A DNA stretch of 64,000 bases from Candidatus Avispirillum sp. (GCA_045597805.1 JAZLKW010000062.1:112004-176003); one strand, 5' to 3'. Shown: positions 7,909 through 46,815, numbered from the stretch's first letter. Numbers and translations: made by a program. The notes: generated by a model from the sequence alone, not told the origin.

Positions 7909-10032
7909 TTATTGATATCTGTCTCCATCTACATCGTAAACGAGCATCATGGGACTCTTGTCAAGTGTGAATTTCGCCTGTATGCCCACTCTGTCATACG
8001 ACACGCGGATATTATGTGCGTTTATGTAATCGTATGTCCAGCGCCAGGTTTTTGCGTACTCTTCTCTCTCGGCGGCGCTTCCGTTTACATATCTGTCCTC
8101 GTACAGTGCCGACAGGCAGAGGAACTTCATATGGACGGACAGTCTGTCAATGTTATCTCTTTCGCGGTCGGTTTTCGCCGCCGCATACGCCTTATCGAAA
8201 AGGGTGAAAAATTCGTCAAAGTGCTCTTTGAAATACTCCTTTGAATACACGTCAAAGGGCTGTTCGAAATCGTTAAGGACACATCCCTTGAGATTGCCGC
8301 ATTCGTCCAGCATCTGCATATATTCATATACGTACTGCCAGCCGTAGCCGAAGTAATATTTCAGAAACTCTTTTGTACTTTGTTCAAACTCGTCACGGGT
8401 CAAGTCCGTGTCCCACATGAGGTCAGATATAAGGTACGCATCCAGATCTTCAAAGGAGGAGCCGGTCGTTCCCACCACGTAGAAGCCTTCCACCTCCTCA
8501 TGTGACATAAACCACTTGAAATCGTTATATATCTTGAAGAAATTGGGCTGAGGGCACAGGAGATAATAGATATTCGTGGGGTAATACCAGATGTATATTC
8601 TCGAACAGTGCTCGAGCCACTGATTGAAATAGGCTTCTTCGATTTTATTGGAACCGAGATCTCCTATCACCGCCGCGCCGCACTGTCCGCTTCCTATATC
8701 GTGGTTGGAGCAGGCGCACCAACACTGGAGCAGTATCACGTCGTCATTCATCACAGCCACGTCCGGGGGCTTTCTCCACGTGGCATAGCCGTTCGTAATG
8801 ACGGTGATGCCGGGGTACTCCGCCGTCAGTATATCGTCGATAGGATTGATGAGATTGGTTATAAGAATACCCATGGGGCTGTTTTCGACCCTCATTACCT
8901 TATTGCAGGCACGGCAGGTGCACATATCCTCGTCAGCCGCATAGGAAATGGATATCTCGGTTATATCGTCGCCTACGACACCTCCGGCAGCGATACGCTC
9001 GTCGAGAAGCTTTCTCATATTATTGAGGCATATTTCATACGCCTCTTTCTGAGAAAGACAGCGTTTTATGCTTTCGCTTGCTTTTTTGATCTGCTCGTCG
9101 GTCATGTAAGCGAGTGCTTCCGGGTCCTCTGTGGCACGGTACAGCTCCTCCAGAGGAAGAAAAACGTCAAGAGAGTGTGCGTTTGCGAAAAGGCGGCATA
9201 TCCCAAAGCCGTATTTTGCCTGCTGCATGGACCACTGTCCCGAGCATCCCGCCAGTTTTCTCTTGATAACGGAGGAATATGTATATTCGTCTCCGTAGGG
9301 GTGTATACAGATACAGCGGTAATATACCGTAGGTATCTGCGTGTCTTCAGTCCCCTCAGGTATATCCGCTTTTCCGGCTTTCAGAAGCTCGAAATCGTTA
9401 TATCCGTAGAATCTGTATCCGAAATAATCCTCCAGCAGGGCGTATACCGCGTACATGGTGCCGCGCTTTGCACCTGCCTCTATCTTCAGATCTCCGTTAT
9501 TAACGGTCAGCGTAAAGCCGTCATTTCCGTATTTTTCAGGGTCGCCCTCACGGAGTGTTATCGCTTTACCGGACGTCTTTGCGTTCACGGTGGGAAGCGT
9601 CACACCGCAGGCGTTTTTTACGTACTTAACAAGCTCGGATGCGGCGAACACCATGTTGGGGTTGTCCGGTGCGGTCACTATTATTTCATAATCGGATATC
9701 GGGTTCCCCGCTATCGTAAATCCGTCCCAGCCGTACCCTTCGGGGAAACGGTCGGAAATATCGAAACAGCCGGCAAAATGGGCTTTCAGGTAAAGCGCGT
9801 CCTTTGACGTGATCTTTCCGTCGCGGTCCACGTCGGCTCCGTCAGTAACGTCAAATCCGACATCTGAAATATTCCTTTTCATCAGCACGGCGTCTTTCGC
9901 ATCCACCGTACAGCTTCCGTCCGCGTCACCCGTCATATAAAGGCCGGCGTTCGCCGCAGAAACAAATACTGCGGAAGACGCGACCATGGCGGCGACTATC
10001 AGGGCGGATATCCCTTTTTTCAAGAATTCCAT
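7909..10032 (-). CDS. Secreted protein with N-terminal dockerin and DUF4838-like glycoside-hydrolase-like body
   Basis: Signal peptide (ALIVAAMVASSAVFVSAANA). Two Ca-binding dockerin repeats (GDADGSCTVDAKDAVLMKRNI and DVDRDGKITSKDALYLKAHF). The rest resembles DUF4838 proteins from memory. Confidence 0.55.
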   Translation of the reverse strand: MEFLKKGISALIVAAMVASSAVFVSAANAGLYMTGDADGSCTVDAKDAVLMKRNISDVGFDVTDGADVDRDGKITSKDALYLKAHFAGCFDISDRFPEGYGWDGFTIAGNPISDYEIIVTAPDNPNMVFAASELVKYVKNACGVTLPTVNAKTSGKAITLREGDPEKYGNDGFTLTVNNGDLKIEAGAKRGTMYAVYALLEDYFGYRFYGYNDFELLKAGKADIPEGTEDTQIPTVYYRCICIHPYGDEYTYSSVIKRKLAGCSGQWSMQQAKYGFGICRLFANAHSLDVFLPLEELYRATEDPEALAYMTDEQIKKASESIKRCLSQKEAYEICLNNMRKLLDERIAAGGVVGDDITEISISYAADEDMCTCRACNKVMRVENSPMGILITNLINPIDDILTAEYPGITVITNGYATWRKPPDVAVMNDDVILLQCWCACSNHDIGSGQCGAAVIGDLGSNKIEEAYFNQWLEHCSRIYIWYYPTNIYYLLCPQPNFFKIYNDFKWFMSHEEVEGFYVVGTTGSSFEDLDAYLISDLMWDTDLTRDEFEQSTKEFLKYYFGYGWQYVYEYMQMLDECGNLKGCVLNDFEQPFDVYSKEYFKEHFDEFFTLFDKAYAAAKTDRERDNIDRLSVHMKFLCLSALYEDRYVNGSAAEREEYAKTWRWTYDYINAHNIRVSYDRVGIQAKFTLDKSPMMLVYDVDGDRYQ

Positions 10033-14760: not shown

Positions 14761-16971
14761 TCATAGTTCTATGCTATTAATCTTTGTAATTCTCTCAGCA
14801 GTATTCCCTCTTATTTCAAGAATAGCCGCAGTATGCGGTGAAAGCTTTACACGGAGCACGTCACCGTAGCGGAGTTTCGTTTTCTCGCATTCGCACGATG
14901 CGGTCGTGCCTTCATACGTTACGGCTGCAGCAGTACTTACAGTGTAGGAGGCTTTGGGATCGGCGTCAAGTCCGATAAGGCTATCGAGTACAATTTCACA
15001 TTCTCCGCAGCATTCCGGCACGGAGAAGAGGAATATGTAACCGTCATGTCCTATGACATGCGCGGAGCCGTCAACTGTTCCCTCCCCGGGAGGTCCGAAG
15101 AGGCAGCGGCGGCGAAGCAGGTACTTATAGTTAGCATCGGCCCAGGCTTTCATCTTTTTGAAGATATCGGCGGTTTCGGGATAGTCGCGGAGCGCCGCGT
15201 AGCCGCCGGCAAGCTGGCAGTATGCCGAGGTACTGAGGGACGATATCATACTGTACTCGAACTCTGACGGCGTCTTGCCGGATATCGAAGTGTAGTTCAT
15301 GTAAGTCGGGCGGAAACGGTCATACTCGTTGTGCCACGTCTGATCGCGGTTGTTCTCGACGCATCCCATCTCATAGTAGTTTTCGTCAGCGTTGAGGCTC
15401 TTAAGTGACCACACCCCTCCGCGTTTGAGCCCGTAATACTGCTCAAGACACATATCGGGGTACCTTTCACGGAGCTTTTTCTTGAAATTCTCGATATTTT
15501 TCCATTCTTTGTAGCGCGAATCACCCGCAGGATGGCCGTGACTGTCTGAGAAGCACGGCTCCTCACCGATGCTTCCGAAGGAGTACCCCGCTATCTCGCG
15601 AAAGTTCAGCCACCTGCCGTCGAACGCCCAGAAGCGGCAGTCGAAGCGGTCAAGCACACGGCAGAGCATATCGAAATGAAAGTCCATATATTCGTCGCAT
15701 GCGGGACAGCTGAGCGGAGTACCGAAGTATTTGTACGTCTCGCCGTTCTCGCCTTTAGCGAGCCATTCGGGATGATTCGTATAGGCATTATTGGGTGTCG
15801 AGAAGCTCGAAACGTAAACCCCGAGTTCTTTTGCCTCGGAGATAAATTTTTCGTATTCGTCGGGCGCGCGGAATTCCTCTGTATAACCGATAATATCACC
15901 GCTGTCATCTCCCGCGGTCGCCTCGTGATGCCATCCGTCCGCTTCGGTTTCGGCGGTGGGAAAGCCGTGTCCCATCACGGGGAAGCCCAGCGGAGACGTT
16001 CTCGCATCACGTATGTAGCGCGGGGACGTACTCGGGTGACTGTCGTGCCCGAAATATATCGCGAAGGTCATAAGGTCACGCACGCCTGCACGGGCGAGCG
16101 GTTTTACCGCTTCAATGTCGGGCTTGGTGATCCCCGCCCACCAGCCGTTCTGCCATACGTAGTAGCCCCCTTCCGGCAGTCCTTCCTTCGGCAGATATGG
16201 GCGCATGAAATCCTGCATTGCCCAAACCTCGCCGAGGTCGAGTGTCTCCTCGGGCATTCCCGCGTTGTCCGGAAGCTTGTTCTCGGAAAAATGCTGACTG
16301 AGGCCGCCGTAGGAGTAGCTTTTGTAATATTTTCTTTCTTTTCCGTCGGGATAAGGACCGTGGGACTTGCGGTATTTATTTGTGTTTTCATATACCCCGA
16401 AAAAGGTCTTCTCACTTACAAAAGGACTGCCATCTTTAACGGTAAACGAGGGCGAGTACGCAAGAGTCACACCATCACGTGACGTCATCACGTCCGCGTT
16501 TGAGATACCGTCCCAGTACGGATATTCGAGTCCGGCACAAACGCCGCCTTTATCGAAGCGGAGGAAAAAGTTCGTCGGTACGTGCCAAAGGGTCTGGTCA
16601 TCGTGAAGAAGGATCTCGCGTGCGGGGGATGCAAGAATCACTGCATCGCACGTGACACGCTCACACGTCCATTCCCCGTCACGGGAGAACGTGAGACGGC
16701 GCTCAATGAAGTCGGCATCCGGGACGCGGAGATATTCAAGCACTGCTCTGAAGGGCGCATCGGTGAATTCAAAAGAAAAACCGTTGTCGGTTTTACTGTA
16801 CCCGTCAGCTGAGGCAGCATCAAAATACGTTTTGCCGTCGGCGGTGAGTGAAAAACCGTGGTATGAAAACGCACACGTCTCACCCGTTTGAGCGTTATCA
16901 AGAGACAGTATCCCGCCCGTTGTGCCGTCGATTTCCGCGGTGAGATTTCCGTTTTTCAGTATGATTTTCAT
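14761..16971 (-). CDS. Large cytoplasmic protein of unknown function, possibly a glycoside-hydrolase-like enzyme
   Basis: Uninterrupted ORF of more than 730 aa with no signal peptide. The start is either ATG 16971 (MKIILKNG...) or ATG 16998. The hydrolase assignment is only an impression from aromatic/acidic-rich blocks (FWAFDGRW). Confidence 0.35.
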   Translation of the reverse strand: MKIILKNGNLTAEIDGTTGGILSLDNAQTGETCAFSYHGFSLTADGKTYFDAASADGYSKTDNGFSFEFTDAPFRAVLEYLRVPDADFIERRLTFSRDGEWTCERVTCDAVILASPAREILLHDDQTLWHVPTNFFLRFDKGGVCAGLEYPYWDGISNADVMTSRDGVTLAYSPSFTVKDGSPFVSEKTFFGVYENTNKYRKSHGPYPDGKERKYYKSYSYGGLSQHFSENKLPDNAGMPEETLDLGEVWAMQDFMRPYLPKEGLPEGGYYVWQNGWWAGITKPDIEAVKPLARAGVRDLMTFAIYFGHDSHPSTSPRYIRDARTSPLGFPVMGHGFPTAETEADGWHHEATAGDDSGDIIGYTEEFRAPDEYEKFISEAKELGVYVSSFSTPNNAYTNHPEWLAKGENGETYKYFGTPLSCPACDEYMDFHFDMLCRVLDRFDCRFWAFDGRWLNFREIAGYSFGSIGEEPCFSDSHGHPAGDSRYKEWKNIENFKKKLRERYPDMCLEQYYGLKRGGVWSLKSLNADENYYEMGCVENNRDQTWHNEYDRFRPTYMNYTSISGKTPSEFEYSMISSLSTSAYCQLAGGYAALRDYPETADIFKKMKAWADANYKYLLRRRCLFGPPGEGTVDGSAHVIGHDGYIFLFSVPECCGECEIVLDSLIGLDADPKASYTVSTAAAVTYEGTTASCECEKTKLRYGDVLRVKLSPHTAAILEIRGNTAERITKINSIEL

Positions 16972-17004
16972 AGTAAGACCCCATTTACAAGCATTCATGT
17001 TTTG

Positions 17005-20737: not shown

Positions 20738-23212
20738 TTATACGCGCTTATTTTTGCTATTTTTCATCAGAACTACTGCGATTACTTTGGCTATGGCTAC
20801 AGCCACAGCTCCGACTATAATCCACAGCAAAGCGTTTTCAAATGAATGCATTGTGTCGTCGGCACCGGCTTTTTCGGACGGATTCTTAGTGTCGGCAGCA
20901 GCTTCTTCAGACGAATTTGCAGTATCGGAAGCGGCTTCTTCAGACGAATTCGCAGTATCGGAAGCGGCTTCTTCAGATGAATGCGCAGTATCGGAAGTGG
21001 CTTTTTCGCTCCCGAAAGCTACCGTATCCGATTGGATATCCGAGTATGGGGATGAGACATCGTCAGGTGCGGTCGGTGAGTCGGATGACGTGTTCTTGCC
21101 CGGAATGTCGGAAGTGCCGTTCTTTTCAGATTCTATTTTGATACTGTCACGGATCTCTTTGCAAAGCTTGGCATATGAGGAAAGAACCGTGGATCCGGTA
21201 GTGGGAGAGAGCAGCTCGGGTATCGCTTCATTTATGAGACAGTTGTAGGAAACCTTCTGAGTATAGCGGAATGTATAAATCTCTGTGGAGGGGAACTCAA
21301 CATCTGTCTTTTCCTTGGTGCAGGAGCTTGTCATAGAGGCATTGTCAGACGGGCCTCCGAGGAACGCGGCTTCATCTGTCTCCCAATACCAATGAGATTC
21401 GCCGTATATGGCAAGTGCACTGAGAGCTTTGTTCACCGAGACGCTTCCGCTTTTCGTATCCATCAGGGAGCCGTTCATCATTCGGCGTGAGGCGATGTAC
21501 TCGGAACTTGCGTCAGAGGGGAGAGATGAAAGCCTTACCGATGTTTTTCCGCTGAAGTATGAGCCGACAGCATTTGTTACTTTGAGTAAATTGTTATCGT
21601 TCAGAGGCAAGGACTGGGAGCCGACAATACTGATGACTGTCGAGCCATAGTCTTTTGCCGCGTTCTGTCCGAGCTTTTCGTTATAGAAATCGAAGTCGGC
21701 GGTGATTCCGTTATTGTTCATATAATACTGAAGAAGAAGCGTGTCAGTATCACCTATAAGCTTATCTGCCGTGAATGCTTTACCGCTTTGGCCGTAACGG
21801 ATATCAGTAACGGTATCTCCTATTTTGCAGCTTTCATAGCTGTTGACCATTCCGCGGTGTTTTGACTTGATTTCGCCGGAGTCCGTAAAGGAGGCTGTGC
21901 CGAAGCAGAGATTTTTGCTGGTAAGATAGCAGAAATTGTCGCGTCCCGTCAAGCCTTCCCTTTTTGTTTCATCTACGGTTATCAGAGTGCTGCAGTATGA
22001 TGCGAGAGTTGAAGCCTTATCCGCATCATTAACATAATCAGACATGCCCAGCACATTCAGAACGAAGGAGCCGTAGACACCGGTCTTGACTGCCATCCGG
22101 TCAAACAGATCCTTATAATCGTCGGCAATCTGATATTCAAACGCATGAGTCAGGAACATAGCCTTGGCTATGGCATCAATGCCGTCGTTATCGCTGACAA
22201 GGTGTGTGCAATAATTCGAAAACTGTTGAACGACCTGCAACGAGAATAAGGAATCCATGTTCATCTGAGCCGCGGTTACGCGGTATGTAAGCAGATCGAC
22301 TGCATCCTCAGCAAGTTCCCCGAGCAGCTCGTCTGTCAGTCCTTTCCCGGTTTCAAAAGCGGGAAAATTCTCAGCATCAAAAGCGGAAAAGCCGTCAGAC
22401 GCGATCTTGTCCTTCATGTTTTTGACAATTTCCGCCTTTATGCTTTCGCGATATGTGTTCACGTTCCATGAAAGCTGCTGAGGCAGGATATCGCTGTCAA
22501 GCACCAGAATGCGCGAATCCTCACCTGCAGACTCGGGGCGTCCGTTATCCTTGGAATAAATCAGCTTATATCCGTTTTCGGTGTTGTCGTAAGCAAGCAC
22601 GAGGCAGGTGTTGTCCATACCGTTAACAAGACGTGCCTTCCCCTCGTTTTGACACCACGACTGAATACCCTTCAGCATAAAGCTGTTGTACTGTATTATC
22701 AGATCGTCGAGACCTTTTTCCATGTAGCGATACTCGAAATCTTTCCAGTTGTTTTCAAACAGCATGGCCTTTTCGATGCGTGCGTTGAATTCAACAGAGG
22801 CCTGCACCTTAGCCATATCCTCAGTCAGGCGATCCAGCTTGCGGTCCATATCGGCGATCTGTTCGCCCATGACGGTCATCTGCTCCATAATGCTGGAAAG
22901 CATCGCCGTATTGCCGTCCTTGATCACACCGAGCAGTTTCAGAAATGTGACGCCGCTGTTTATTGCGGCAACATAGGTTCCCGCTGTTCTTAAGTTGTTT
23001 GCGAAATCCACAAAGACGTCTATGACTCCTTTTGCCTGATTATCGGAGAAGACATTGTTCAGATTATTCACGGCATTTGTAAGAGCATTGAGCGAATTCT
23101 GAATATCCTTGTCCGTCGCAGGTGTCTGCCCAAGAGCAATTCCGAATGAAGGCATAGTCGTCGAAAAGAGCAACGTAAGCATTAACAGCAGCGAAATGAA
23201 CCTTTTTGTCAT
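20738..23212 (-). CDS. Large secreted, C-terminally membrane-anchored protein of unknown function, with a Ser/Glu/Ala-rich tandem repeat
   Basis: Signal peptide (LLLMLTLLFSTTMPSFG), a helical N-terminal region, and a C-terminal TM helix (LLWIIVGAVAVAIAKVIAVVLM) followed by a basic tail. No family recognised. Confidence 0.6.
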   Translation of the reverse strand: MTKRFISLLLMLTLLFSTTMPSFGIALGQTPATDKDIQNSLNALTNAVNNLNNVFSDNQAKGVIDVFVDFANNLRTAGTYVAAINSGVTFLKLLGVIKDGNTAMLSSIMEQMTVMGEQIADMDRKLDRLTEDMAKVQASVEFNARIEKAMLFENNWKDFEYRYMEKGLDDLIIQYNSFMLKGIQSWCQNEGKARLVNGMDNTCLVLAYDNTENGYKLIYSKDNGRPESAGEDSRILVLDSDILPQQLSWNVNTYRESIKAEIVKNMKDKIASDGFSAFDAENFPAFETGKGLTDELLGELAEDAVDLLTYRVTAAQMNMDSLFSLQVVQQFSNYCTHLVSDNDGIDAIAKAMFLTHAFEYQIADDYKDLFDRMAVKTGVYGSFVLNVLGMSDYVNDADKASTLASYCSTLITVDETKREGLTGRDNFCYLTSKNLCFGTASFTDSGEIKSKHRGMVNSYESCKIGDTVTDIRYGQSGKAFTADKLIGDTDTLLLQYYMNNNGITADFDFYNEKLGQNAAKDYGSTVISIVGSQSLPLNDNNLLKVTNAVGSYFSGKTSVRLSSLPSDASSEYIASRRMMNGSLMDTKSGSVSVNKALSALAIYGESHWYWETDEAAFLGGPSDNASMTSSCTKEKTDVEFPSTEIYTFRYTQKVSYNCLINEAIPELLSPTTGSTVLSSYAKLCKEIRDSIKIESEKNGTSDIPGKNTSSDSPTAPDDVSSPYSDIQSDTVAFGSEKATSDTAHSSEEAASDTANSSEEAASDTANSSEEAAADTKNPSEKAGADDTMHSFENALLWIIVGAVAVAIAKVIAVVLMKNSKNKRV
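20898..20996 (-). repeat. 3 x 33-bp in-frame tandem repeat (encodes SSEEAASDTAN units)
   Basis: The three units are nearly identical, differing by 2-4 nt pairwise: 20898-20930, 20931-20963 and 20964-20996. Confidence 0.9.
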
Positions 23213-23492
23213 ATAAAAATCACTCTCCCATAATTTTATAGATTTCGTAATCTCATAATTTTCCGTTTTATTTCATTGCATCGGCCCGAACATATTGTTA
23301 TCCTTACGTTTTCAGCGCGTACCGGCTCACCGTTTTCTGCGAGGATCCTGACTGAGTATTGATCACGCTTTTTATGGTTGTGCCGCTTTGCTTTACGGGC
23401 CATATCAACTCAAATGCGTGAACAGAACAGTGTTCACGTATCCTCCGCCGCACTTATATAATTCTGCTGTAATGTGAGCGGATCACAGCGGA

Positions 23493-26400
23493 TCAGATCC
23501 TCTCTGCGATATTCTTTATAAGGACCTCGATCACTCCGAAATCTCGTTTCAGGGACTGCGGAAGTGTCGGGACCCTGTTATACAGCAGATGGATGTAATC
23601 ATCCCACTGACCGCCGAAATCCAGGATCTCTACGGTGTATACCGAGCGTACCGATGGATTCCGGGGGATTTTGACACCGACGACACTGCCTTGCAGATGT
23701 ATGGTCGTATCACCGTGCATCAGCTCCAGTCGGATCGGTTCTCCCAATCGGAAGGCATCGGGCTCATCAAAGTATATCTTCATACTGTGTTCAGTCAGTT
23801 GTGTGGTGATCCCGCCGTATACGCGGCCATCCTTTTCACTTGTAACGATTTCCGCATCCTTGACCGTCACAGGCTCTCCGTCATGATCACGGCCGTCCAC
23901 AAGGCAGAGGGACATGAGGATGAAGTAGACGTCACGTGCGAGCCAGTACAGCACTGTAAGCAGACCGAGGCTGCGAGTGCGTATAAGCAGACTCGAAATG
24001 CGGATCACACCGAAGATACAGCAAAGCAGCAGTATCCAGAACGGGATCTTGTAGGAAAGATTCCGGGTCTTTTGCGCTGCGCCGGACTGCTTGTCAGTCA
24101 CCTTGAACGTCGACATGGAGACGCCGAAGGATTCAAGAAGGATCGGAATCAGGAGATACGGCATGACCGACATCTCCTGCACACCGCTCCATTTTGTAGA
24201 AAGCGTATTACCGCTGTACAGACGGAAGCAGAGATACTGTGCAGCGAACATCGGGAGCCAGAAAAGCAGCAGTTCCGAAAAGCTGCACATGAACAGAGGA
24301 ATACCCGCTACGGCAAAAAGAAGAGGTGAAAGGATGTATACAAGATTTTTGACCGGTGAGAACCAATAGGTCACGGAACTGATATAGCTGATCTTCTGAC
24401 GCAGGGACAGACCTTTCCGTTTGGAAATCTTCAGAGTCTTGGCTGTTCGGATGACACCGCGGCCCCAGCGGGTACGCTGTTTGACGTGTTCCGCAAAGGA
24501 CGTGGGAGCGAGTCCCGAGGCAAGCGGCTCGGAAAGTCCGAGGCTGATAAAGCCGGACGATTCGATCAGGAGCCCCGTTGCAAAGTCCTCCGTGATGGAT
24601 TCTGTGAAGAAGCCGCCGATCGCATCAAGTGCGTTTCTGCTCAGTATCGTATTGGAGCCGCCGTAAATTACTGTATTTACGGAGGTGCGGGCTGCCTCGA
24701 CTGTACGATAGAAGAAGTCCTGCTCATTGGGGATCCTGTTTTCGCAATAGAGGTTATGCTGGAATACATCGGGGTTATAGAAGCTCTGCGGTGTCTGCAG
24801 CAGACCGAGAGGCATACGGCTTCCTTCCGGGAGACGGCTGTTACGTTCTTCTGCATCAACAAAGTAGGGGATCGTTTTCAGCAGGAACTCCTCGCGCGGG
24901 ATCATATCCGCATCAAATGTGACTACATAAGGAGAGCTGCTCAGGGATAGCGCATGATTCAGATTACCGGCCTTGGCTCCCTTATTGTCGGGACGATCAA
25001 AGTAATTGACACCGAGCTCATTTGCAAGTTCCCGCATCTCGCTTCTGCGATTATCATCGCAAAGGTAGATATGCACCTTTGATTTGTCGGGGTATTGCAT
25101 TCGCAGGCAGCCGATCAGCGTCTTACGAAGCAGTTCTGTTGATTCGTTATAGGTAGAAACAAAGATATCTACGTCGGGATAACGCTCGTCCTCGATCTCG
25201 GGGAGCGGATAGGTGCGAAGACCGGACATGGACGAATAATGCACGAGTGATTCCCCGAATCCTGTGATTTCCACAAGAAGCAGGAGAATGCTGCAGGCTG
25301 CAGCGAGCCATCCGTATATGATCGGCAGTGTAGATACGATACGCCAGACCAGATAGTTCAGGGAAAAGAATGTCGATAAAACGAGGAAAATATTGCGTGA
25401 TTTGATTCTGGCGCCTGCCTTGTCCTTGTTCTGCGAAGGATCGCCGGTACGAGAAAGGAGATCGTCATATGTAAAATGCTTCTTTTTCCCGAGTCTCCGT
25501 GCAGTCAGTACGATACCGGAGATCAAGAGCAGAACCGCTGCACAGAATCCGGAAAGCACCGTCCATTCCAGCGCCGGTTTGGCTTTCAGCGTTTCGAAAA
25601 ATGTCGTATCCGATGCGGCACGTGAGACGGAATCTGCTCTGGCTTCGGCCAGAGGCATCCCGCAGAGGATATCTTTAGTATAGACGCCGTAGGAGGAAAG
25701 AGAGCTGTCGGACAGTGCCTCTTTGGCTGATGTCCGGGGCACGAACATGGCGGATCCTTCATCCTTGTCCGAAAGGCTCCAGACAGCGTAAGAGATGCCG
25801 TGCTTATTGAGAAGCGACATCCATTGTTCGCTCTGCTCATAGTCGATCCTGCCGTCACCGGTGTGTTCACAAAAGCCGCACTCCGTGATAAAAACGGGCA
25901 ATCCACTGTCCAGTGCATTTTCGAGTTCATCCCTCAGGGCATCACCGTGTGTGGCGGCATAGAAGTGCAGTGTATACAGAATATTTGACCAGCCTTCGAT
26001 CGGGCAGTCCACGGCAGAAACGAGATCTTTGTCATAATCCGGCGTACCGACTACGATCACCGCATCTTTGTTATGGCTCTTGATCACGGGGATCACGCAG
26101 GAGGCGTATCTGCGGACATCTGCCCAGGTAGCATCGCCGTTCGGTTCATTGCAGATCTCATATATGATGTTCGGAACATCGGCGTATTCTTCTGAGATTT
26201 GATCAAAAAAAGTGATCGCATCCGCCAGATCCTGATTCGGATCACCATGCTCCAGAATGTGCCAGTCCACCAGAACGTACATATCTGCGTCGATGGAAAA
26301 GCGGATCCCGCGCTCCATAAGCTTCAGATTCGCTTTTCGGTTTCCGCTGCAATAATCGTACGAATACATGGCGAGACGTACCAGGTTCACATCCCAGTCT

Positions 26401-26708
26401 TTGCTGATATGTGCAAACAGATCCTGATCCACGAAATCCGGATAATATGTAAGACCGTGTGTGCTTACACCCCGAAGGACAGCCGGCTTACCGTCTTCGC
26501 CCGTCAGCTGCGTTCCCTCAAGGTGCAGAAAGCCGGAGGTGGAAGGACGCGCTTTATCATCGGCAGTTTTTTCGGTGACCGCTGTATCTGCTGCAGTGAC
26601 TTCGGCCGCCTGTGCGATGACAGGAAGACAGCAGGTCAGCAGAAGGACAGACAACAGAACACTCAATGAGTGCCTGAAGGTTATATGCAAGGTTCCGGGT
26701 GATTTCAT
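23493..26708 (-). CDS. Fusion: secreted GH5 endoglucanase domain + BcsA-like processive GT2 beta-glycan (cellulose-type) synthase + C-terminal PilZ-position domain
   Basis: Signal peptide. GH5 catalytic motifs EICNEPNG and FITECG (aa ~60-325). GT2 motifs STYNES, YLCDD, TFDADM, QTPQSF, ITEDFATG and QRTRWGRG (aa ~510-755). Multiple TM helices. C-terminal ~130 aa beta-rich domain. Confidence 0.8.
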   Translation of the reverse strand: MKSPGTLHITFRHSLSVLLSVLLLTCCLPVIAQAAEVTAADTAVTEKTADDKARPSTSGFLHLEGTQLTGEDGKPAVLRGVSTHGLTYYPDFVDQDLFAHISKDWDVNLVRLAMYSYDYCSGNRKANLKLMERGIRFSIDADMYVLVDWHILEHGDPNQDLADAITFFDQISEEYADVPNIIYEICNEPNGDATWADVRRYASCVIPVIKSHNKDAVIVVGTPDYDKDLVSAVDCPIEGWSNILYTLHFYAATHGDALRDELENALDSGLPVFITECGFCEHTGDGRIDYEQSEQWMSLLNKHGISYAVWSLSDKDEGSAMFVPRTSAKEALSDSSLSSYGVYTKDILCGMPLAEARADSVSRAASDTTFFETLKAKPALEWTVLSGFCAAVLLLISGIVLTARRLGKKKHFTYDDLLSRTGDPSQNKDKAGARIKSRNIFLVLSTFFSLNYLVWRIVSTLPIIYGWLAAACSILLLLVEITGFGESLVHYSSMSGLRTYPLPEIEDERYPDVDIFVSTYNESTELLRKTLIGCLRMQYPDKSKVHIYLCDDNRRSEMRELANELGVNYFDRPDNKGAKAGNLNHALSLSSSPYVVTFDADMIPREEFLLKTIPYFVDAEERNSRLPEGSRMPLGLLQTPQSFYNPDVFQHNLYCENRIPNEQDFFYRTVEAARTSVNTVIYGGSNTILSRNALDAIGGFFTESITEDFATGLLIESSGFISLGLSEPLASGLAPTSFAEHVKQRTRWGRGVIRTAKTLKISKRKGLSLRQKISYISSVTYWFSPVKNLVYILSPLLFAVAGIPLFMCSFSELLLFWLPMFAAQYLCFRLYSGNTLSTKWSGVQEMSVMPYLLIPILLESFGVSMSTFKVTDKQSGAAQKTRNLSYKIPFWILLLCCIFGVIRISSLLIRTRSLGLLTVLYWLARDVYFILMSLCLVDGRDHDGEPVTVKDAEIVTSEKDGRVYGGITTQLTEHSMKIYFDEPDAFRLGEPIRLELMHGDTTIHLQGSVVGVKIPRNPSVRSVYTVEILDFGGQWDDYIHLLYNRVPTLPQSLKRDFGVIEVLIKNIAERI

Positions 26709-26887
26709 AATGGAAGTTCCTTTTTTATGGGAGATGTTTGCAATTTTGGCTCATATGAGAGCTTCATTACGAGGATCCGGGCTCTGATGTACGGCAGATG
26801 TTCCCCGCCTCATAGTTCATATCTCCGCGAATTCCTGTCTTGTACGGTAATTATCTATACGAACAGTTAATGCCTGATACTGCTGCC

Positions 26888-26916
26888 ATTGTAACATATT
26901 TCGACCAAAAAAGCAA
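26888..26916 (-). promoter_or_regulatory. Candidate promoter for the GH5-synthase gene (leaves a ~170-nt leader)
   Basis: On the minus strand: TTGCTT, 17-nt spacer ending in TG, TACAAT. Confidence 0.45.
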
Positions 26917-26988
26917 TAATTTGTTATATTTTAGATATAATATTACACTTTCCGTTCTGCAGAAGGGTATCTCACTATTCAGTGATAT

Positions 26989-27537
26989 TCACTTCCCTCT
27001 TGCGAGGAGAAGCGCTCCGTTTTCACGGAGCCATTTATTATGTGTACGGTAATCGGGAAAGGCGTCTTCGACGAGGGCATAGAAGCGTTTCGAGTGGTTC
27101 ATTTCCTTACGGTGGCAGAGCTCATGGACCACCACGCTGTCGAGGACCTCACTCGGGGCGAGCATGAGCAGATAATTAAAGCTGAGGTTTCCTTTTGAAC
27201 TGCAGCTTCCCCATCTGGTTTTCTGACGGCGTACGGTTATCCTTCCGTACGTCACGCCGACTATAGGAGCGTAATATGCCACACGATCCGGTATTGTCTC
27301 TTTTGCTCTGTTTATCAGCTCGTTTTTCTCCCTCTCGGTGAGGGGCTTTTCTTTTTCCAGCGCTTCGCGGCGTGAATTATCCTTTGCCAGTTTCGCTTCT
27401 ATCCATGCCGTATGCTTTTCGATGAATGCTGAAATCTCCCTTTCGGTGGCTCTGATGGGAGCGCGGACGAGCACCTCCCCGTTTTTCACCTCGAGAGACA
27501 TGGTCTTTCTCTTGCTTTTAATTACTGTTATGTCCAT
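26989..27537 (-). CDS. YgjP-like (DUF45/M48-like) zinc metallohydrolase
   Basis: HELCHRKEMNH (HExxH) motif. The start is moved to ATG 27537 (MDITVIKSKRKT), after AAGAGG. Confidence 0.75.
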   Translation of the reverse strand: MDITVIKSKRKTMSLEVKNGEVLVRAPIRATEREISAFIEKHTAWIEAKLAKDNSRREALEKEKPLTEREKNELINRAKETIPDRVAYYAPIVGVTYGRITVRRQKTRWGSCSSKGNLSFNYLLMLAPSEVLDSVVVHELCHRKEMNHSKRFYALVEDAFPDYRTHNKWLRENGALLLARGK

Positions 27538-29654: not shown

Positions 29655-30299
29655 TTATTTCAATTCCAGGTGCTCGCAGTTGAGGAACGCCTGGGCGGTG
29701 AGAGTACTGGTGACGGGAATGTCGGCCGTCGCTCCGCATCTTTCGCATTTCACGCAGACGCCGTCTCCCGTGACGTCCACGGAATAGAGCCCCTCGTCCT
29801 TTTCGCACTTACAGGTGATCTCGCCGGATTCATCCAGATCGCGTATTACGAAATTAACGATTTCCAGTATCTGCGGATCGGTAAAGACGGGGTCTACCTC
29901 CTCCTTTTTCGTGCCGAAGAAGTCCTCACAGCCCGCTTCTTCCAGAAGGGATGAAAGCTCCTCGTCGGATGCCTTCGTCGCCTCGGCGACCTTATCTTTA
30001 TCTCCTATAAAGCACAGGTCAACCGCGGAATAGGGGCACTGCAGGGCGAAAAGCTCTTTGGAGAAAAATATCTGAGGGGTAAGCGTATAGGAATGAGGGT
30101 TGGGGCATACGAAGCAGGGGGCGGTCATTCTGACCTTTTTATCCTTGCCATACACTATATCCATTTCACCGCCGCCGCACGGACATTTCAGTCTGAGCAT
30201 ATCGGCGGACAGGGAAAAAACGCCCGCTATCCCCGTGACCCAACTGCCGCATCCGGGGCATCTGTAAGCTACGGTGGTTTCTTTATTTTCTATCACCAT
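29655..30299 (-). CDS. Hypothetical Cys-rich (multiple zinc-ribbon-like CxxC pairs) cytoplasmic protein
   Basis: 214 aa with AAGGAG SD. Cys pairs: CPGCG...CPCGG, CFVCPNPH and CKCE...CVKCERCG. Confidence 0.5.
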   Translation of the reverse strand: MVIENKETTVAYRCPGCGSWVTGIAGVFSLSADMLRLKCPCGGGEMDIVYGKDKKVRMTAPCFVCPNPHSYTLTPQIFFSKELFALQCPYSAVDLCFIGDKDKVAEATKASDEELSSLLEEAGCEDFFGTKKEEVDPVFTDPQILEIVNFVIRDLDESGEITCKCEKDEGLYSVDVTGDGVCVKCERCGATADIPVTSTLTAQAFLNCEHLELK

Positions 30300-30455: not shown

Positions 30456-32990
30456 ATGACTTTAAGAGAAAAGATCGAAAAGCTGCTTGGCGAGATCGAA
30501 GCACTTGATTCTTCCGATATTGCGGACAAAAGATTGCCGCAGAACACCTTTTATCTAAACGAGAACGACATTCTGTGCTGTGAGCGTGAGGTTGGCGAAT
30601 CCCGCTACCCCTACGATGCGGACGGTCTGGTAGTCTGGGCTCATTCCTCGGGCTATATCGATGCCTGCGAGTCCACGTTCTCCGTTTTTAAGACCGCCCA
30701 CTATGCCGAAGACCCCTCTATCGGATTTTTCGCCGGTATCCCTCTTGACAACGGCGATTTTTACCCCATTTCCGTTCTGGGCTCCTCCCGTCAGCTCTTC
30801 GAGCCTCTTGACGTGAGAAGATACGTTGTTTATTCCTTCAGATGTGCCTATTATATCGCCGACACCGACAGCGTGACCTTTGCGGTCAGACTACACGTCA
30901 GCGCCGACAAGCATATACATTTCGCTTTCTGTGCCCTGAACAAGACCGCGGAGACAGTTCCCTTCTACATGGCTTCCTCAGTTGAGGCGATACTGCGCTT
31001 CCAGGAATCTGAAGACTTCTGGTGCAGGATGTCCAAATTCGGCAAGAGATACCCCGAAGGTAACGCTATGCTCCGTTCCGGTGAGAACGACTGTCTCGTT
31101 ATTAACTTTGCCGCCGACGGCGGTGAGGTCTGCGGCGAATACCGCTCCATGGCAAAATCCGATCTTCTCGGCGCCCGCGGACGTCAGCTGACCAATGCGG
31201 AAGCGCTCCGCTCCGGTGTGCTTACACGGCAGCAGAAATCCGTCAACACCACGGAGATCCCCATGGCATCCGAGATCATACACTACGAGCTGGGTGCGGG
31301 AGAGATGGTACGCCGTGAGTTCGATCTTTCGTATTACCACGACATAAAGGACGCCGAGGCGGCTGTGGGTGCTTTTATTGACGTTCCCGCCATCGACGAA
31401 GCTTTAATTCTCGCAGAGAAGGATGAGCTTGCGAAGTTCGAGACCATGAAGGTGGAGTTTTCCGACTGGTCCGGCTCGCTCAACGCGAAGGTGCTGGGCA
31501 AGTTCGTCCGCAACGTACAGAAGCAGGTATCATTCTGCGCTTTGGGCAAAAACTACGCCGGCCCTCACATCGGCATCCGCGATGTTATGCAGCAGCTTGA
31601 ATCCTCGCTTATATGGCAGCCCCGGGAGAGCCGCGAGAAGATCATCACCGCCCTCAATTTCATCATGGAGAACGGCAGACCTCCCCGCCAGTTCTCGCTT
31701 CCCGCAACGCCCGAGATGATCCCCGATATGGACCTGCGTATGTACATTGACCAGGGTGTATGGATAGTCTCGACTATCTATACTTACCTTTCCTACACGG
31801 ACGACTGGTCCATCCTCGACGAGGAATGCTCATACTACGTGCCTTCGGATGACAACACATACATTGTAAGAAAGAGCGACGTGCGCGACACGGTGCTCGA
31901 CCATATGCTGAAGATCATGGACTATCTCGCGTCCAATCTCGATCCCGACACGGGATGTCTCCACGCGCTGTACGGCGACTGGAACGACGCCATCGACGGC
32001 TTGGGCAGAACGAAGGACGAAGGAAAGACCTTCGGCACGGGCGTGACGGTCATGGCTTCCCTGCAGTTCTACCGCAACTGCTTCGAGATGGCCGATATCC
32101 TCTCCCATATCGGAAAGCATGAGGAAAAGCTTCCCCTTTATGAGAAGTACAGACAGGGCATTGAGGCCGGCCTCATGAAATACGGCATCGACAAAAACGG
32201 CGCGGGTGAGCGCCGCATAATCCACGGGTGGGGCGACAAGATGGCATACCGTCTGGGCTCCTACAACGATCCCGACGGAAAGGCGCGCCGCAGCACCACC
32301 TCCAACGCTTTCTGGGTACTTTCCGGCATGATAGACCGTGACGTGACCTTAAAGGATTCCATTCTCGGCAATTTCACGGCGGTCAAATCGAAATACGGTC
32401 TTATGACCTTCGACGAGCCCTTTACGCCCGATATGCGCCCCGTGGCGGGCCGTATCAGCGGCATCACCCCCGGCACCTATGAGAACGCCGCGGCGTACGT
32501 TCACGCAAGCATGTTCGCCATCATGGCGCTGTTCTCCATGGGTGAGGGCAGGTTCGCGTGGGAGGAGCTGGAAAAATCCGCCGTCATTTCCCACAAGAAC
32601 TGCACCATGACCTCCTTTGCCATGCCCAACTCCTACTGCCGTACCGACGTTTACGAGATCGACGGCGATTCCATGGGCGACTGGTACACGGGAAGCGGAA
32701 CGGTGCTCATAAAGGCTATCATAAAATTCGGCTTCGGTATTTCTCCCGACCTTGACGGTCTGACCGTACAGACGCCCGCCGTCATGCCCTGCCGCGACGC
32801 GAAACTTTCCATCGTAGTCAAGGGACACCCGGTGACCGTGGTATATAAGAACACGGGCAAGGGAAAACGCAGCTTCTCCGTTGACGGCGAGGCTATCGCG
32901 GGCAAGTACTGCGACCTTATGAAGACCGAAAAGCTCTTTATCGCAAAAGAAGACATTCACGACGGAATGGTGATTTCCGTTACCGACTGA
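30456..32990 (+). CDS. (alpha/alpha)6-barrel glycoside phosphorylase/hydrolase, GH94-like (cellobiose/cellodextrin-phosphorylase-like)
   Basis: 844 aa with no signal peptide. The GDWNDAIDG block resembles the catalytic-Asp region of GH94-type phosphorylases. The size also fits. Confidence 0.5.
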   Translation: MTLREKIEKLLGEIEALDSSDIADKRLPQNTFYLNENDILCCEREVGESRYPYDADGLVVWAHSSGYIDACESTFSVFKTAHYAEDPSIGFFAGIPLDNGDFYPISVLGSSRQLFEPLDVRRYVVYSFRCAYYIADTDSVTFAVRLHVSADKHIHFAFCALNKTAETVPFYMASSVEAILRFQESEDFWCRMSKFGKRYPEGNAMLRSGENDCLVINFAADGGEVCGEYRSMAKSDLLGARGRQLTNAEALRSGVLTRQQKSVNTTEIPMASEIIHYELGAGEMVRREFDLSYYHDIKDAEAAVGAFIDVPAIDEALILAEKDELAKFETMKVEFSDWSGSLNAKVLGKFVRNVQKQVSFCALGKNYAGPHIGIRDVMQQLESSLIWQPRESREKIITALNFIMENGRPPRQFSLPATPEMIPDMDLRMYIDQGVWIVSTIYTYLSYTDDWSILDEECSYYVPSDDNTYIVRKSDVRDTVLDHMLKIMDYLASNLDPDTGCLHALYGDWNDAIDGLGRTKDEGKTFGTGVTVMASLQFYRNCFEMADILSHIGKHEEKLPLYEKYRQGIEAGLMKYGIDKNGAGERRIIHGWGDKMAYRLGSYNDPDGKARRSTTSNAFWVLSGMIDRDVTLKDSILGNFTAVKSKYGLMTFDEPFTPDMRPVAGRISGITPGTYENAAAYVHASMFAIMALFSMGEGRFAWEELEKSAVISHKNCTMTSFAMPNSYCRTDVYEIDGDSMGDWYTGSGTVLIKAIIKFGFGISPDLDGLTVQTPAVMPCRDAKLSIVVKGHPVTVVYKNTGKGKRSFSVDGEAIAGKYCDLMKTEKLFIAKEDIHDGMVISVTD

Positions 32991-46680: not shown

Positions 46681-46815
46681 GTTTTTATCCTTTCGTTTTT
46701 AGGATTTACTTCTGTGGTAATTCTACCACATTCTCTCCCTCTCTTCAAGTATCGGTATTGATTTTTTGGCAGAAATAATGTATGATTAAATCAGAAAATT
46801 CTGCGGAGGTTTTTG

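Follow-up and report, generated by a model that had tools for sequence, protein, structure and literature searches.

A stretch of 64,000 nucleotides of DNA from Candidatus Avispirillum sp. (GCA_045597805.1, JAZLKW010000062.1:112004-176003; hereafter the window) encodes, at 23493..26708 on the minus strand, a single polypeptide in which a GH5 domain of endoglucanase type is fused to a BcsA-like synthase core and to a C-terminal PilZ-fold domain whose two cyclic di-GMP (c-di-GMP) motifs have been replaced. We consider it probable that this protein is a one-polypeptide machine that makes, exports and trims an extracellular beta-glucan without a canonical response to c-di-GMP. Bacteria (BcsZ, CcsZ), plants (KORRIGAN) and Streptomyces (CslZ) pair a cellulose synthase with an endoglucanase, and the reason for this pairing is debated. 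The gene is one intact open reading frame (ORF) with an ATG start, 1071 amino acids (aa) plus stop and no internal stop, and its G+C content (51.7%) matches that of the window (50.6%). Mapping of domains, with transmembrane (TM) helices taken in part from an AlphaFold2 (AF2) model, gave the following features:

23493..26708, minus strand: GH5::BcsA-like::PilZ-fold fusion protein, complete ORF (ORF, Pfam, NCBIfam and AF2).
26607..26708, minus strand: predicted Sec-type signal peptide, aa 1-34, with putative cleavage at ...VIAQA/AE (sequence; AF2 helix 7-26).
25659..26549, minus strand: predicted GH5 (subfamily 2-like) endo-beta-1,4-glucanase domain, aa 54-350 (Pfam, PDB sequence matches and Foldseek).
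25491..25577, minus strand: first TM helix, aa 378-406, the putative tether of an external GH5 domain, followed by basic RRLGKKKH (AF2 helix).
25224..25415, minus strand: TM helices aa 432-459 and 467-495, where BcsA homology starts (phmmer and AF2).
24429..25223, minus strand: processive GT2 catalytic domain, predicted to be cytoplasmic, aa 496-760 (Pfam and NCBIfam).
23904..24428, minus strand: C-terminal TM and interface-helix bundle, aa 761-935 (AF2 helices).
24090..24107, minus strand: gating loop FKVTDK, aa 868-873, in the loop region 861-883 (AF2 and sequence).
23496..23903, minus strand: PilZ-fold C-terminal domain, aa 936-1071, comprising linker, barrel and two helices (profile alignment and Foldseek).

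A sequence-only reading of this DNA had already proposed a single GH5–GT2 polypeptide, which the continuous 1071-aa ORF with its Pfam GH5 and GT2 families bears out; the domain order and boundaries given there agree with the new mapping to a few tens of bases. All of the motifs quoted in that reading are present, in the GH5 domain (EICNEPNG, aa 184-191; FITECG, 273-278), in the GT2 domain (STYNES, 518-523; YLCDD, 548-552; TFDADM, 597-602; QTPQSF, 638-643; ITEDFATG, 705-712; QRTRWGRG, 744-751) and in the C-terminal domain (VDGRDHDGEPV, 937-947; TQLTEHSMKIYF, 969-980). The full-length AF2 model, computed from a multiple sequence alignment of 43 homologues, reached a mean predicted local distance difference test score (pLDDT) of 84.7 and a predicted template modelling score (pTM) of 0.67. 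It contains a disordered linker (aa 27-49) behind the signal-peptide helix, two short amphipathic helices (aa 353-376) between GH5 and the first TM helix, and a six-stranded beta-barrel (aa 954-1030) followed by terminal helices at 1035-1043 and 1059-1070. An odd number of TM helices separates GH5 from GT2; taken with the signal peptide and the positive-inside rule, this would place the GH5 domain outside the membrane and the GT2 domain and the barrel inside the cell.

In the full protein, Pfam PF00150 covers aa 71-315 (E = 5e-53), with the acid/base E188 inside the NEP motif and E276 as the nucleophile. The best PDB sequence matches of the GH5 domain were 6gjf, 3pzt, 1a3h and 1egz, the lowest E value (1.8e-77) being that of 6GJF, an ancestral Cel5A; 3PZT is EglS of B. 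subtilis, 1A3H is Cel5A of B. agaradhaerens and 1EGZ is EGZ of Erwinia. Compared with the 1.8e-77 obtained for GH5_2-like enzymes, the GH5_25-type Thermotoga Cel5A (3amc), a structural relative of clostridial CcsZ (PMC8892547), scored just E = 3.4e-6. Foldseek matched the modelled domain to 3pzt, 1a3h, 1egz and 1tvn with template modelling scores (TMt) of 0.90-0.96 and root mean square deviations of 1.2-2.1 Å, and the matches 1egz and 1tvn carry the description 'family GH 5-2'. By its closest relatives, the domain would be a (beta/alpha)8 endo-1,4-beta-glucanase that is subfamily 2-like. The eight canonical GH5 residues (R111, H150, N187, E188, H248, Y250, E276 and W310) are invariant in the 43 homologues, and the mean pairwise identity of the GH5 domain across the fusion family is 55%.

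For the synthase part, Pfam GT2 families span aa 511-817 of the full protein, with a Cellulose_synt match in addition, and the best NCBIfam model was TIGR03030 (CelA, UDP-forming cellulose synthase catalytic subunit; aa 438-979, E = 3.8e-106), with PgaC, NodC and other GT2 synthases trailing by a very wide margin. NF008558 gave 262.6 bits against a cut-off of 992, and the protein falls below the PRK11498 threshold too, so that, judged by the NCBI thresholds, the synthase part is homologous to BcsA but not an equivalog of it. The GT2 signature (D551/D552, D599xD601, T706-E707-D708 and Q744-R745-x-R747-W748) and the gating-loop residues F868, V870, T871 and K873 (FxVTxK) are invariant in the 43 homologues, and the highest conservation within the protein is that of GT2 (mean pairwise identity 76%). 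Invariance of the GH5 and GT2 catalytic residues at 50-77% protein identity points to purifying selection on both catalytic domains. The phmmer alignment to 4hg6 and 4p00 starts at query residue 438, facing chain residues 66-67. We infer from this start point that TM helices 432-459 and 467-495 equal TM3 and TM4 of BcsA, and that the signal peptide, the GH5 domain and one TM helix appear to take the place of the first two TM helices of BcsA. Structural comparison agreed, with BcsA chains as the best Foldseek matches (9B8V_E, E = 3.5e-44; 4P00_A, E = 3.9e-43, about 745 aligned columns over a 728-residue chain, TMt 0.74) and plant CesAs ranked far behind. The sequence-only reading had allowed for a GT2 domain that clusters with a non-cellulose synthase known to carry a fused hydrolase; by both sequence and fold, BcsA was closest.

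The C-terminal domain lies where BcsA carries its PilZ domain, yet Pfam PilZ was undetected in the full protein at E<=1, and PF07238 run on the C-terminal fragment scored 12.2 bits against a cut-off of 22.5 (E = 0.24). Among 16 members of the fusion family, PF07238 gave any match in four, with a best E value of 8e-4, compared with 5e-15 to 2.9e-5 for unfused relatives. A profile built from the last 340 residues of the fusion family was aligned to E. coli BcsA. This profile runs through the E. coli PilZ region (chain 486-765, E = 2.3e-22; PilZ part, residues 690-765), and in the alignment E. coli RRSHR faces GExVx, and DFSDGG faces xLTEHx (QLTEHS in the window protein). Two replacement motifs are thereby delimited:

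23874..23897, minus strand: replacement of RxxxR by D938-G-R940-D-H-D-G944-E945, family consensus DGRDxDGE (profile alignment and unfused relatives).
23787..23813, minus strand: replacement of (D/N)xSxxG by G966-I-T-T-Q-L-T-E973-H974, family consensus G[IV]TTxLTEH (profile alignment).

The first Arg of RxxxR is kept as the invariant R940, the position of the second Arg is taken by G944, and the Asp/Asn and final Gly of (D/N)xSxxG are gone in all fusion members. RxxxR was found in none of the N-terminal fusions scored, whereas 33 of 36 unfused relatives with a retained C-terminal domain have it; both canonical motifs occur in all but three of these unfused relatives and are absent from every N-terminal fusion scored. 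The closest unfused relatives read ...DGR-xxY-R... and ...D-[IAL]-S-E-x-G..., where the fusions read ...DGR-DxD-G... and ...x-L-T-E-H-x.... Across the fusion family, G939, R940, E945, G966, E973 and H974 are invariant and D938, D941 and D943 are at least 88% conserved, and the linker (aa 936-953) is 69% identical, above the GH5 domain. Because the linker is so conserved and six replacement residues are invariant, the pattern argues for motif replacement, not decay. An AF2 model of the domain alone (aa 932-1071) had a pLDDT of 73.5, and its top Foldseek matches were mostly PilZ proteins (MotI/DgrA, PA 4XRN, YcgR, MapZ, Alg44, VCA0042 and BcsA; structures 5vx6, 4xrn, 5y6g, 5xly, 4rt1, 2rde and 4i86), which confirms that the modelled domain retains the six-stranded PilZ barrel. 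The earlier description of a PilZ-position domain lacking canonical motifs is thus supported jointly by profile alignment, comparison with unfused relatives and fold search; on proper alignment to E. coli BcsA, neither canonical motif emerged. Since both c-di-GMP motifs are exchanged for a conserved acidic/His signature, canonical activation by c-di-GMP has probably been lost. The acidic/His motif may serve to fix the enzyme in one constitutive conformation, or it may be a binding site for a metal or for another protein.

The fusion is not confined to the window. A search at the protein level yielded 591 relatives (E<=1e-10), among them at least 120 protein clusters (at the 90% identity level) with the same architecture and 50-77% identity to the window protein; the best 120 clusters are all 1032-1145 aa long, all carry PF00150 and GT2 families, and come from NCBI, ENA, JGI and Logan assemblies. 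A genome scan with one genome per GTDB species, of which the best 80 loci were examined, found the same single ORF in at least 24 species genomes, some of them from cultured isolates in which it lies on contigs of 130-850 kb. These two counts set lower bounds on how frequent such a GH5–GT2 fusion is, a question raised by the sequence-only reading. Carriers include Butyrivibrio sp. FCS014, NC2002, AC2005 and LC3010 and metagenome-assembled genomes (MAGs) of Lachnospiraceae, Clostridiales, Saccharofermentans, Oscillospiraceae, Erysipelotrichaceae and Anaerovoracaceae; the closest genome among the loci listed is Candidatus Crickella caballi (76% identity). The fusion also occurs in diderm rumen bacteria, namely four Fibrobacter MAGs (loci L009, L012, L013 and L017, one of them on a 521-kb contig) and the cultured rumen spirochaetes Treponema sp. 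C6A8 (L010, 850-kb contig) and JC4 (L025), with 51-53% identity to the window protein. In a neighbour-joining tree of the GT/TM core, computed without support values, all N-terminal GH5 fusions form one clade, and the nesting of Fibrobacter and Treponema inside Firmicutes sequences indicates cross-phylum horizontal transfer among rumen organisms. Database labels for the family are only 'cellulase family glycosylhydrolase' or 'cellulose synthase (UDP-forming)'.

A few members deviate from the single-ORF form. In Treponema sp. JC4 (L025), the GH5 part extends over two overlapping ORFs, possibly through a frameshift or sequencing error, and in two MAGs (L050:5974-8063 and L075:5803-8758) the fusion is spread over 2-3 ORFs with internal segments missing, as in pseudogenes or assembly errors. 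One seemingly unfused 641-aa protein with the new motif (P0150) proved to be a truncated gene call, as its 90% cluster holds a 1044-aa member.

Relatives of the synthase are joined to hydrolases in other ways:

L052, L053 and L057 (Asaccharospora, Paeniclostridium and Paraclostridium): synthase gene followed directly by a TM-anchored GH5_2 gene; PilZ canonical.
L059 and L061-L065: synthase gene followed directly by a TM-anchored GH5_2 gene; PilZ canonical.
L068, L070, L072 and L074: GH5_2-like gene directly upstream of the synthase gene; PilZ absent in L070 and L072.
L048 (Clostridium simiarum): CcsZ-like GH5 gene directly upstream of a CcsA-type synthase gene; PilZ canonical.
L066:5938-8568, L071:5914-8625 and L078:1-2544: GH5 fused at the C-terminus, past an extra TM helix.
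P0158: GT2, degenerate PilZ (QSLYR / SISETN), TM helix and then GH5.
L039:2-3736, plus strand (Ruminococcus sp. RUI322 MAG): GH44 (Pfam E = 7.4e-39) fused N-terminally to a homologous synthase.

The C-terminal fusions carry a CcsZ-like GH5 in Ca. Improbicoccus and a GH5_2-like one in two Bacilli MAGs, and a PilZ-like domain was not detected in L066, L071 or L078. The GH44 fusion has a degenerate PilZ region and forms a sister branch of the GH5-fusion clade in the neighbour-joining tree; its ORF runs off the contig start, as the synthase loci of L068 and L074 run off their contigs. The recurrence of adjacency and fusion in several independent arrangements provides strong comparative evidence that hydrolase and synthase would act on the same polymer.

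We propose the following mechanism. The N-terminal signal peptide would export the GH5_2-type endoglucanase domain, which the first TM helix would keep tethered on the outer face of the membrane. The chain would then re-enter the membrane as the BcsA-like core, its two TM helices matching the last two N-terminal helices of BcsA. Inside the cell, the GT2 domain would polymerize UDP-glucose, and the C-terminal helix bundle and gating loop would form the translocation channel. The polymer is most probably a beta-1,4-glucan (cellulose or cello-oligomers). As the chain emerges, the tethered GH5 domain would act on it in cis, for release, shortening or quality control, a release or trimming role that is elsewhere assigned to the separate proteins BcsZ, CcsZ or KORRIGAN (PMC7710045, PMC8892547). 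The C-terminal domain would keep its PilZ barrel with both c-di-GMP motifs swapped for the strictly conserved acidic/His signature. More speculatively, an extracellular domain, an amphipathic helix and a TM helix placed N-terminal to the core resemble the C-terminal anchor of BcsB, a likeness that may explain why no BcsB or CcsB partner would be needed.

Several points weigh against this proposal. The TIGR03030 score of 355.8 bits is far under the equivalog cut-off of 699.1; the pTM of the full-length model is just 0.67; no family member has been characterized biochemically; and the neighbour-joining tree carries no bootstrap support values. In addition, the BcsA-like Gram-positive enzyme RiGT2 makes a mixed-linkage (1,3;1,4)-beta-glucan, not cellulose (PMC10374906), so linkage cannot be read from homology, and BgsA of S. 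meliloti, although it has no PilZ domain, is a c-di-GMP-binding protein (cited in PMC10374906), which makes non-canonical binding by the fusion conceivable. An enzyme of the same architecture could accordingly produce mixed-linkage (1,3;1,4)-beta-glucan or another beta-glucan, trimmed by the GH5_2 domain. We think this unlikely but still worth serious consideration: RiGT2 has a PilZ domain and makes its mixed-linkage product independently of c-di-GMP, it has relatives among the Clostridia, such as in Robinsoniella of the Lachnospiraceae (PMC10374906), and the TIGR03030 score is under the equivalog cut-off, but the closest characterized relatives of the GH5 domain are endo-1,4-beta-glucanases. 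Continued, non-canonical binding of c-di-GMP or a different cyclic dinucleotide by the PilZ-fold domain, with control altered and not lost, seems distinctly improbable. The invariant first Arg (R940), the high conservation of the region, the BgsA precedent for binding without PilZ motifs (cited in PMC10374906) and the presence of unfused synthases with canonical PilZ in Butyrivibrio too (L033, Butyrivibrio sp. M55), by which the messenger is probably present in that genus, speak for such binding. Yet the second Arg and the D/N and final G of the second motif are missing in all members, the Pfam PilZ score is under threshold, and the replacement motif is strongly acidic (D938, D941, D943, E945 and E973), which is unfavourable for a dianionic nucleotide.

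The two halves might also share a chain without cooperating on one polymer, the GH5 domain being a nutritional cellulase anchored by the synthase or the GT2 domain an inactive relic. Cohesin and dockerin proteins and a GH94-like enzyme are encoded in the window, many hosts come from the fibre-rich rumen and the NCBI name is simply 'cellulase family glycosylhydrolase'; we nevertheless give this idea little credence, because GT2 is the most conserved part (76% pairwise identity) with every catalytic and gating residue invariant, a mere anchor would not need about 690 conserved residues, and GH5 is repeatedly adjacent or fused to this synthase family in several independent arrangements, which points towards a shared pathway. 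The sequence-only reading had envisaged an assembly or frameshift artefact that would show as two ORFs in relatives. GH5 and synthase genes do lie side by side as separate genes in some relatives (L068, L070, L072 and L074), and at a few loci the fusion is broken up (L025, L050 and L075), but merging of two adjacent genes by assembly, frameshift or gene calling can practically be dismissed: the frame is continuous in the window and in more than 100 independent assemblies (NCBI, ENA, JGI and Logan), isolates included, the linker and first TM helix are found in all of those assemblies, and AF2 models a coherent protein. With at least 120 clusters and at least 24 GTDB species genomes sharing the single ORF, we rejected the artefact explanation.

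Genomic context associates the fusion gene with no constant partner. Its neighbours in the window encode CorA, GNAT, flavodoxin, an 824-aa surface protein, YgjP, an ECF-S component, an amidohydrolase and a GH94-like protein; none is shared with the five homologous loci compared (L001, L002, L004, L005 and L006), and BcsB, CcsB, MBOAT and SGNH/DHHW-type domains were not found among the neighbours of the window gene or of these five. The 824-aa protein (20738-23212, minus strand) has a signal peptide, a C-terminal TM anchor preceded by Ser/Ala-rich near-repeats (SDTA[HN]SSEEAA) and no Pfam family; some of its 29 homologues end in SLH domains, and on this ground it would belong to a cell-surface protein family. 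We considered this downstream product as a BcsB/CcsB analogue and dropped it, as its homologues are not syntenic with the fusion in L005 and L006. Two candidate transcription signals flank the fusion gene:

23417..23438, minus strand: weak terminator-like hairpin, 55 nt past the stop codon, with a weak T-tract (consensus scan).
26888..26916, minus strand: possible promoter TTGCTT-17 nt-TGTTACAAT (extended -10), about 170 nt 5′ of the ATG (read by eye; uncalled in the scan).

The hairpin suggests that the fusion gene is transcribed on its own. No Rfam element, c-di-GMP riboswitches included, was found over 23100-27300 at E<=1 beyond one chance-level match. With no conserved neighbour, a hairpin past the stop and no Rfam element in the leader, the gene looks like a stand-alone unit. 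A scan for GGDEF/EAL signatures gave nothing meaningful within the 64-kb window, which is too short to judge the organism's use of c-di-GMP.

In Butyrivibrio sp. LC3010 (L001:4054-10861) and AC2005 (L026:5464-12313), the fusion gene lies inside a partner-switching cluster, with a STAS gene upstream and STAS-APH, HATPase_c_2 (RsbW-like) and SpoIIE phosphatase genes downstream, the gap past the synthase stop being 15 bp. This cluster could constitute an alternative regulatory input. STAS, HATPase_c_2 and SpoIIE genes were not found in the window by phmmer, so the link is lineage-specific (L001 and L026, partly L002 and L018) and not a property of the window locus.

Elsewhere in the window, a 962-aa protein (61062-63950, minus strand) contains cohesin, and dockerins are borne by proteins at 7909-10032 (minus strand) and 46813-49029 (plus strand), which are DUF4838/GH20b-like and NAGPA phosphodiester glycosidase-like. 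The organism, called cellulosome-bearing in the sequence-only reading, would by these genes indeed have cohesin–dockerin machinery of cellulosome type, its dockerins here sitting on non-cellulase enzymes. At a distance of 3.7 kb from the fusion, 30456-32990 (plus strand) encodes an 844-aa protein that moderately matches the catalytic domain of GH94 (E = 4e-30), the cellobiose/cellodextrin phosphorylase superfamily; its gene is not conserved beside the fusion in other genomes. Two further ORFs, of 745 aa (14761-16998, minus strand) and 214 aa (29655-30299, minus strand), have no significant Pfam family.

Among known systems, the clostridial ccsZABHI locus likewise encodes a Gram-positive BcsA-like GT2 with a C-terminal PilZ-position domain, lacks an outer-membrane component and includes CcsZ, a membrane-tethered extracellular GH5 endoglucanase (PMC7710045, PMC8892547); the CcsA-type locus of Clostridium simiarum (L048) is about 40% identical in the synthase part. 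It differs in that CcsZ and CcsA are separate proteins, CcsZ is of GH5_25 type whereas the fused GH5 is subfamily 2-like, the PilZ motifs are replaced in the fusion, and none of its CcsB, MBOAT (CcsH) and CcsI/DHHW O-acetylation genes was found near the window gene. The BcsA–BcsB–BcsZ system (4HG6, 4P00 and 9B8V) shares the GT2 core, QxxRW, FxVTxK, the TM channel and the position of the PilZ barrel at just 22-24% identity between BcsA and the fusion. There, however, the hydrolase is a separate periplasmic GH8 (BcsZ) and not a covalent GH5, BcsB is required whereas none was found encoded beside the fusion, and BcsA has the RxxxR and DxSxxG motifs that the fusion does not conserve. RiGT2/Cgs of Romboutsia ilealis is also Gram-positive, BcsA-like and working without BcsB, and its PilZ domain is needed for activity although c-di-GMP neither binds nor stimulates in vitro (PMC10374906); unlike the fusion, it has no hydrolase domain, keeps canonical RxxxR and NxSxxG and yields a mixed-linkage product. 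A barrel kept without binding motifs has a parallel in PilZ folds that do not bind c-di-GMP, such as the tetrameric Xanthomonas PilZ (3PH1/3RQA, at ranks 40 and 43 of the Foldseek matches to the C-terminal domain). Those proteins are stand-alone, whereas here the degenerate domain is a synthase regulatory module with its own invariant replacement motif.

The sole described case that we found of a cellulose synthase covalently joined to a glycoside hydrolase domain is tunicate CesA (GT2–GH6), which is thought to stem from the merging of adjacent bacterial GT2 and GH genes (PMC7464555). In this animal protein the GH6 domain is C-terminal and no longer has its catalytic Asp, whereas in the bacterial fusion the GH5 domain is at the N-terminus and its catalytic residues are invariant. 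The sequence-only reading knew of no description of such a fusion; this holds for bacteria within the searchable literature, where neither a GH5::BcsA fusion nor this PilZ variant turned up (an earlier mention is possible), but not overall, tunicate CesA being a precedent. The building blocks and their partnership are known from BcsA/BcsZ and CcsA/CcsZ; the family itself is widespread, well defined and apparently undescribed.

As a tentative extension that we hold to be doubtful, the barrel may have been repurposed as the receiver of a signal other than c-di-GMP, with GH5 acting in cis and one-to-one at the channel exit. The ligand of the invariant signature (LxDGRDxDGExVxV ... G[IV]TTxLTEH) could be a divalent cation or another protein, one candidate being a STAS-domain protein from the partner-switching module found beside the gene in some Butyrivibrio. 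If true, this would be the first case in which a non-nucleotide input acts through a PilZ fold to gate a synthase-dependent exopolysaccharide machine, and the 'cellulase requirement' of cellulose synthases would be shown to act in cis, one-to-one, at the channel exit.

The fusion is 'Rosetta-stone' evidence for a hydrolase working at the synthase itself, with both active sites conserved and the association reinvented several times, and as a one-gene system it allows hydrolase and synthase mutations to be combined. It also marks a clean evolutionary switch, from the canonical PilZ motifs seen in almost every unfused relative that has a C-terminal domain to the new conserved motif of every fusion, a change that bears on the control of exopolysaccharide synthesis in gut anaerobes. 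The family makes both the question of why a cellulose synthase needs a cellulase and the evolution of PilZ control directly testable. As a common family in rumen and gut metagenomes that has also spread to Fibrobacter and Treponema, it may be relevant to how biofilms form on plant fibre.

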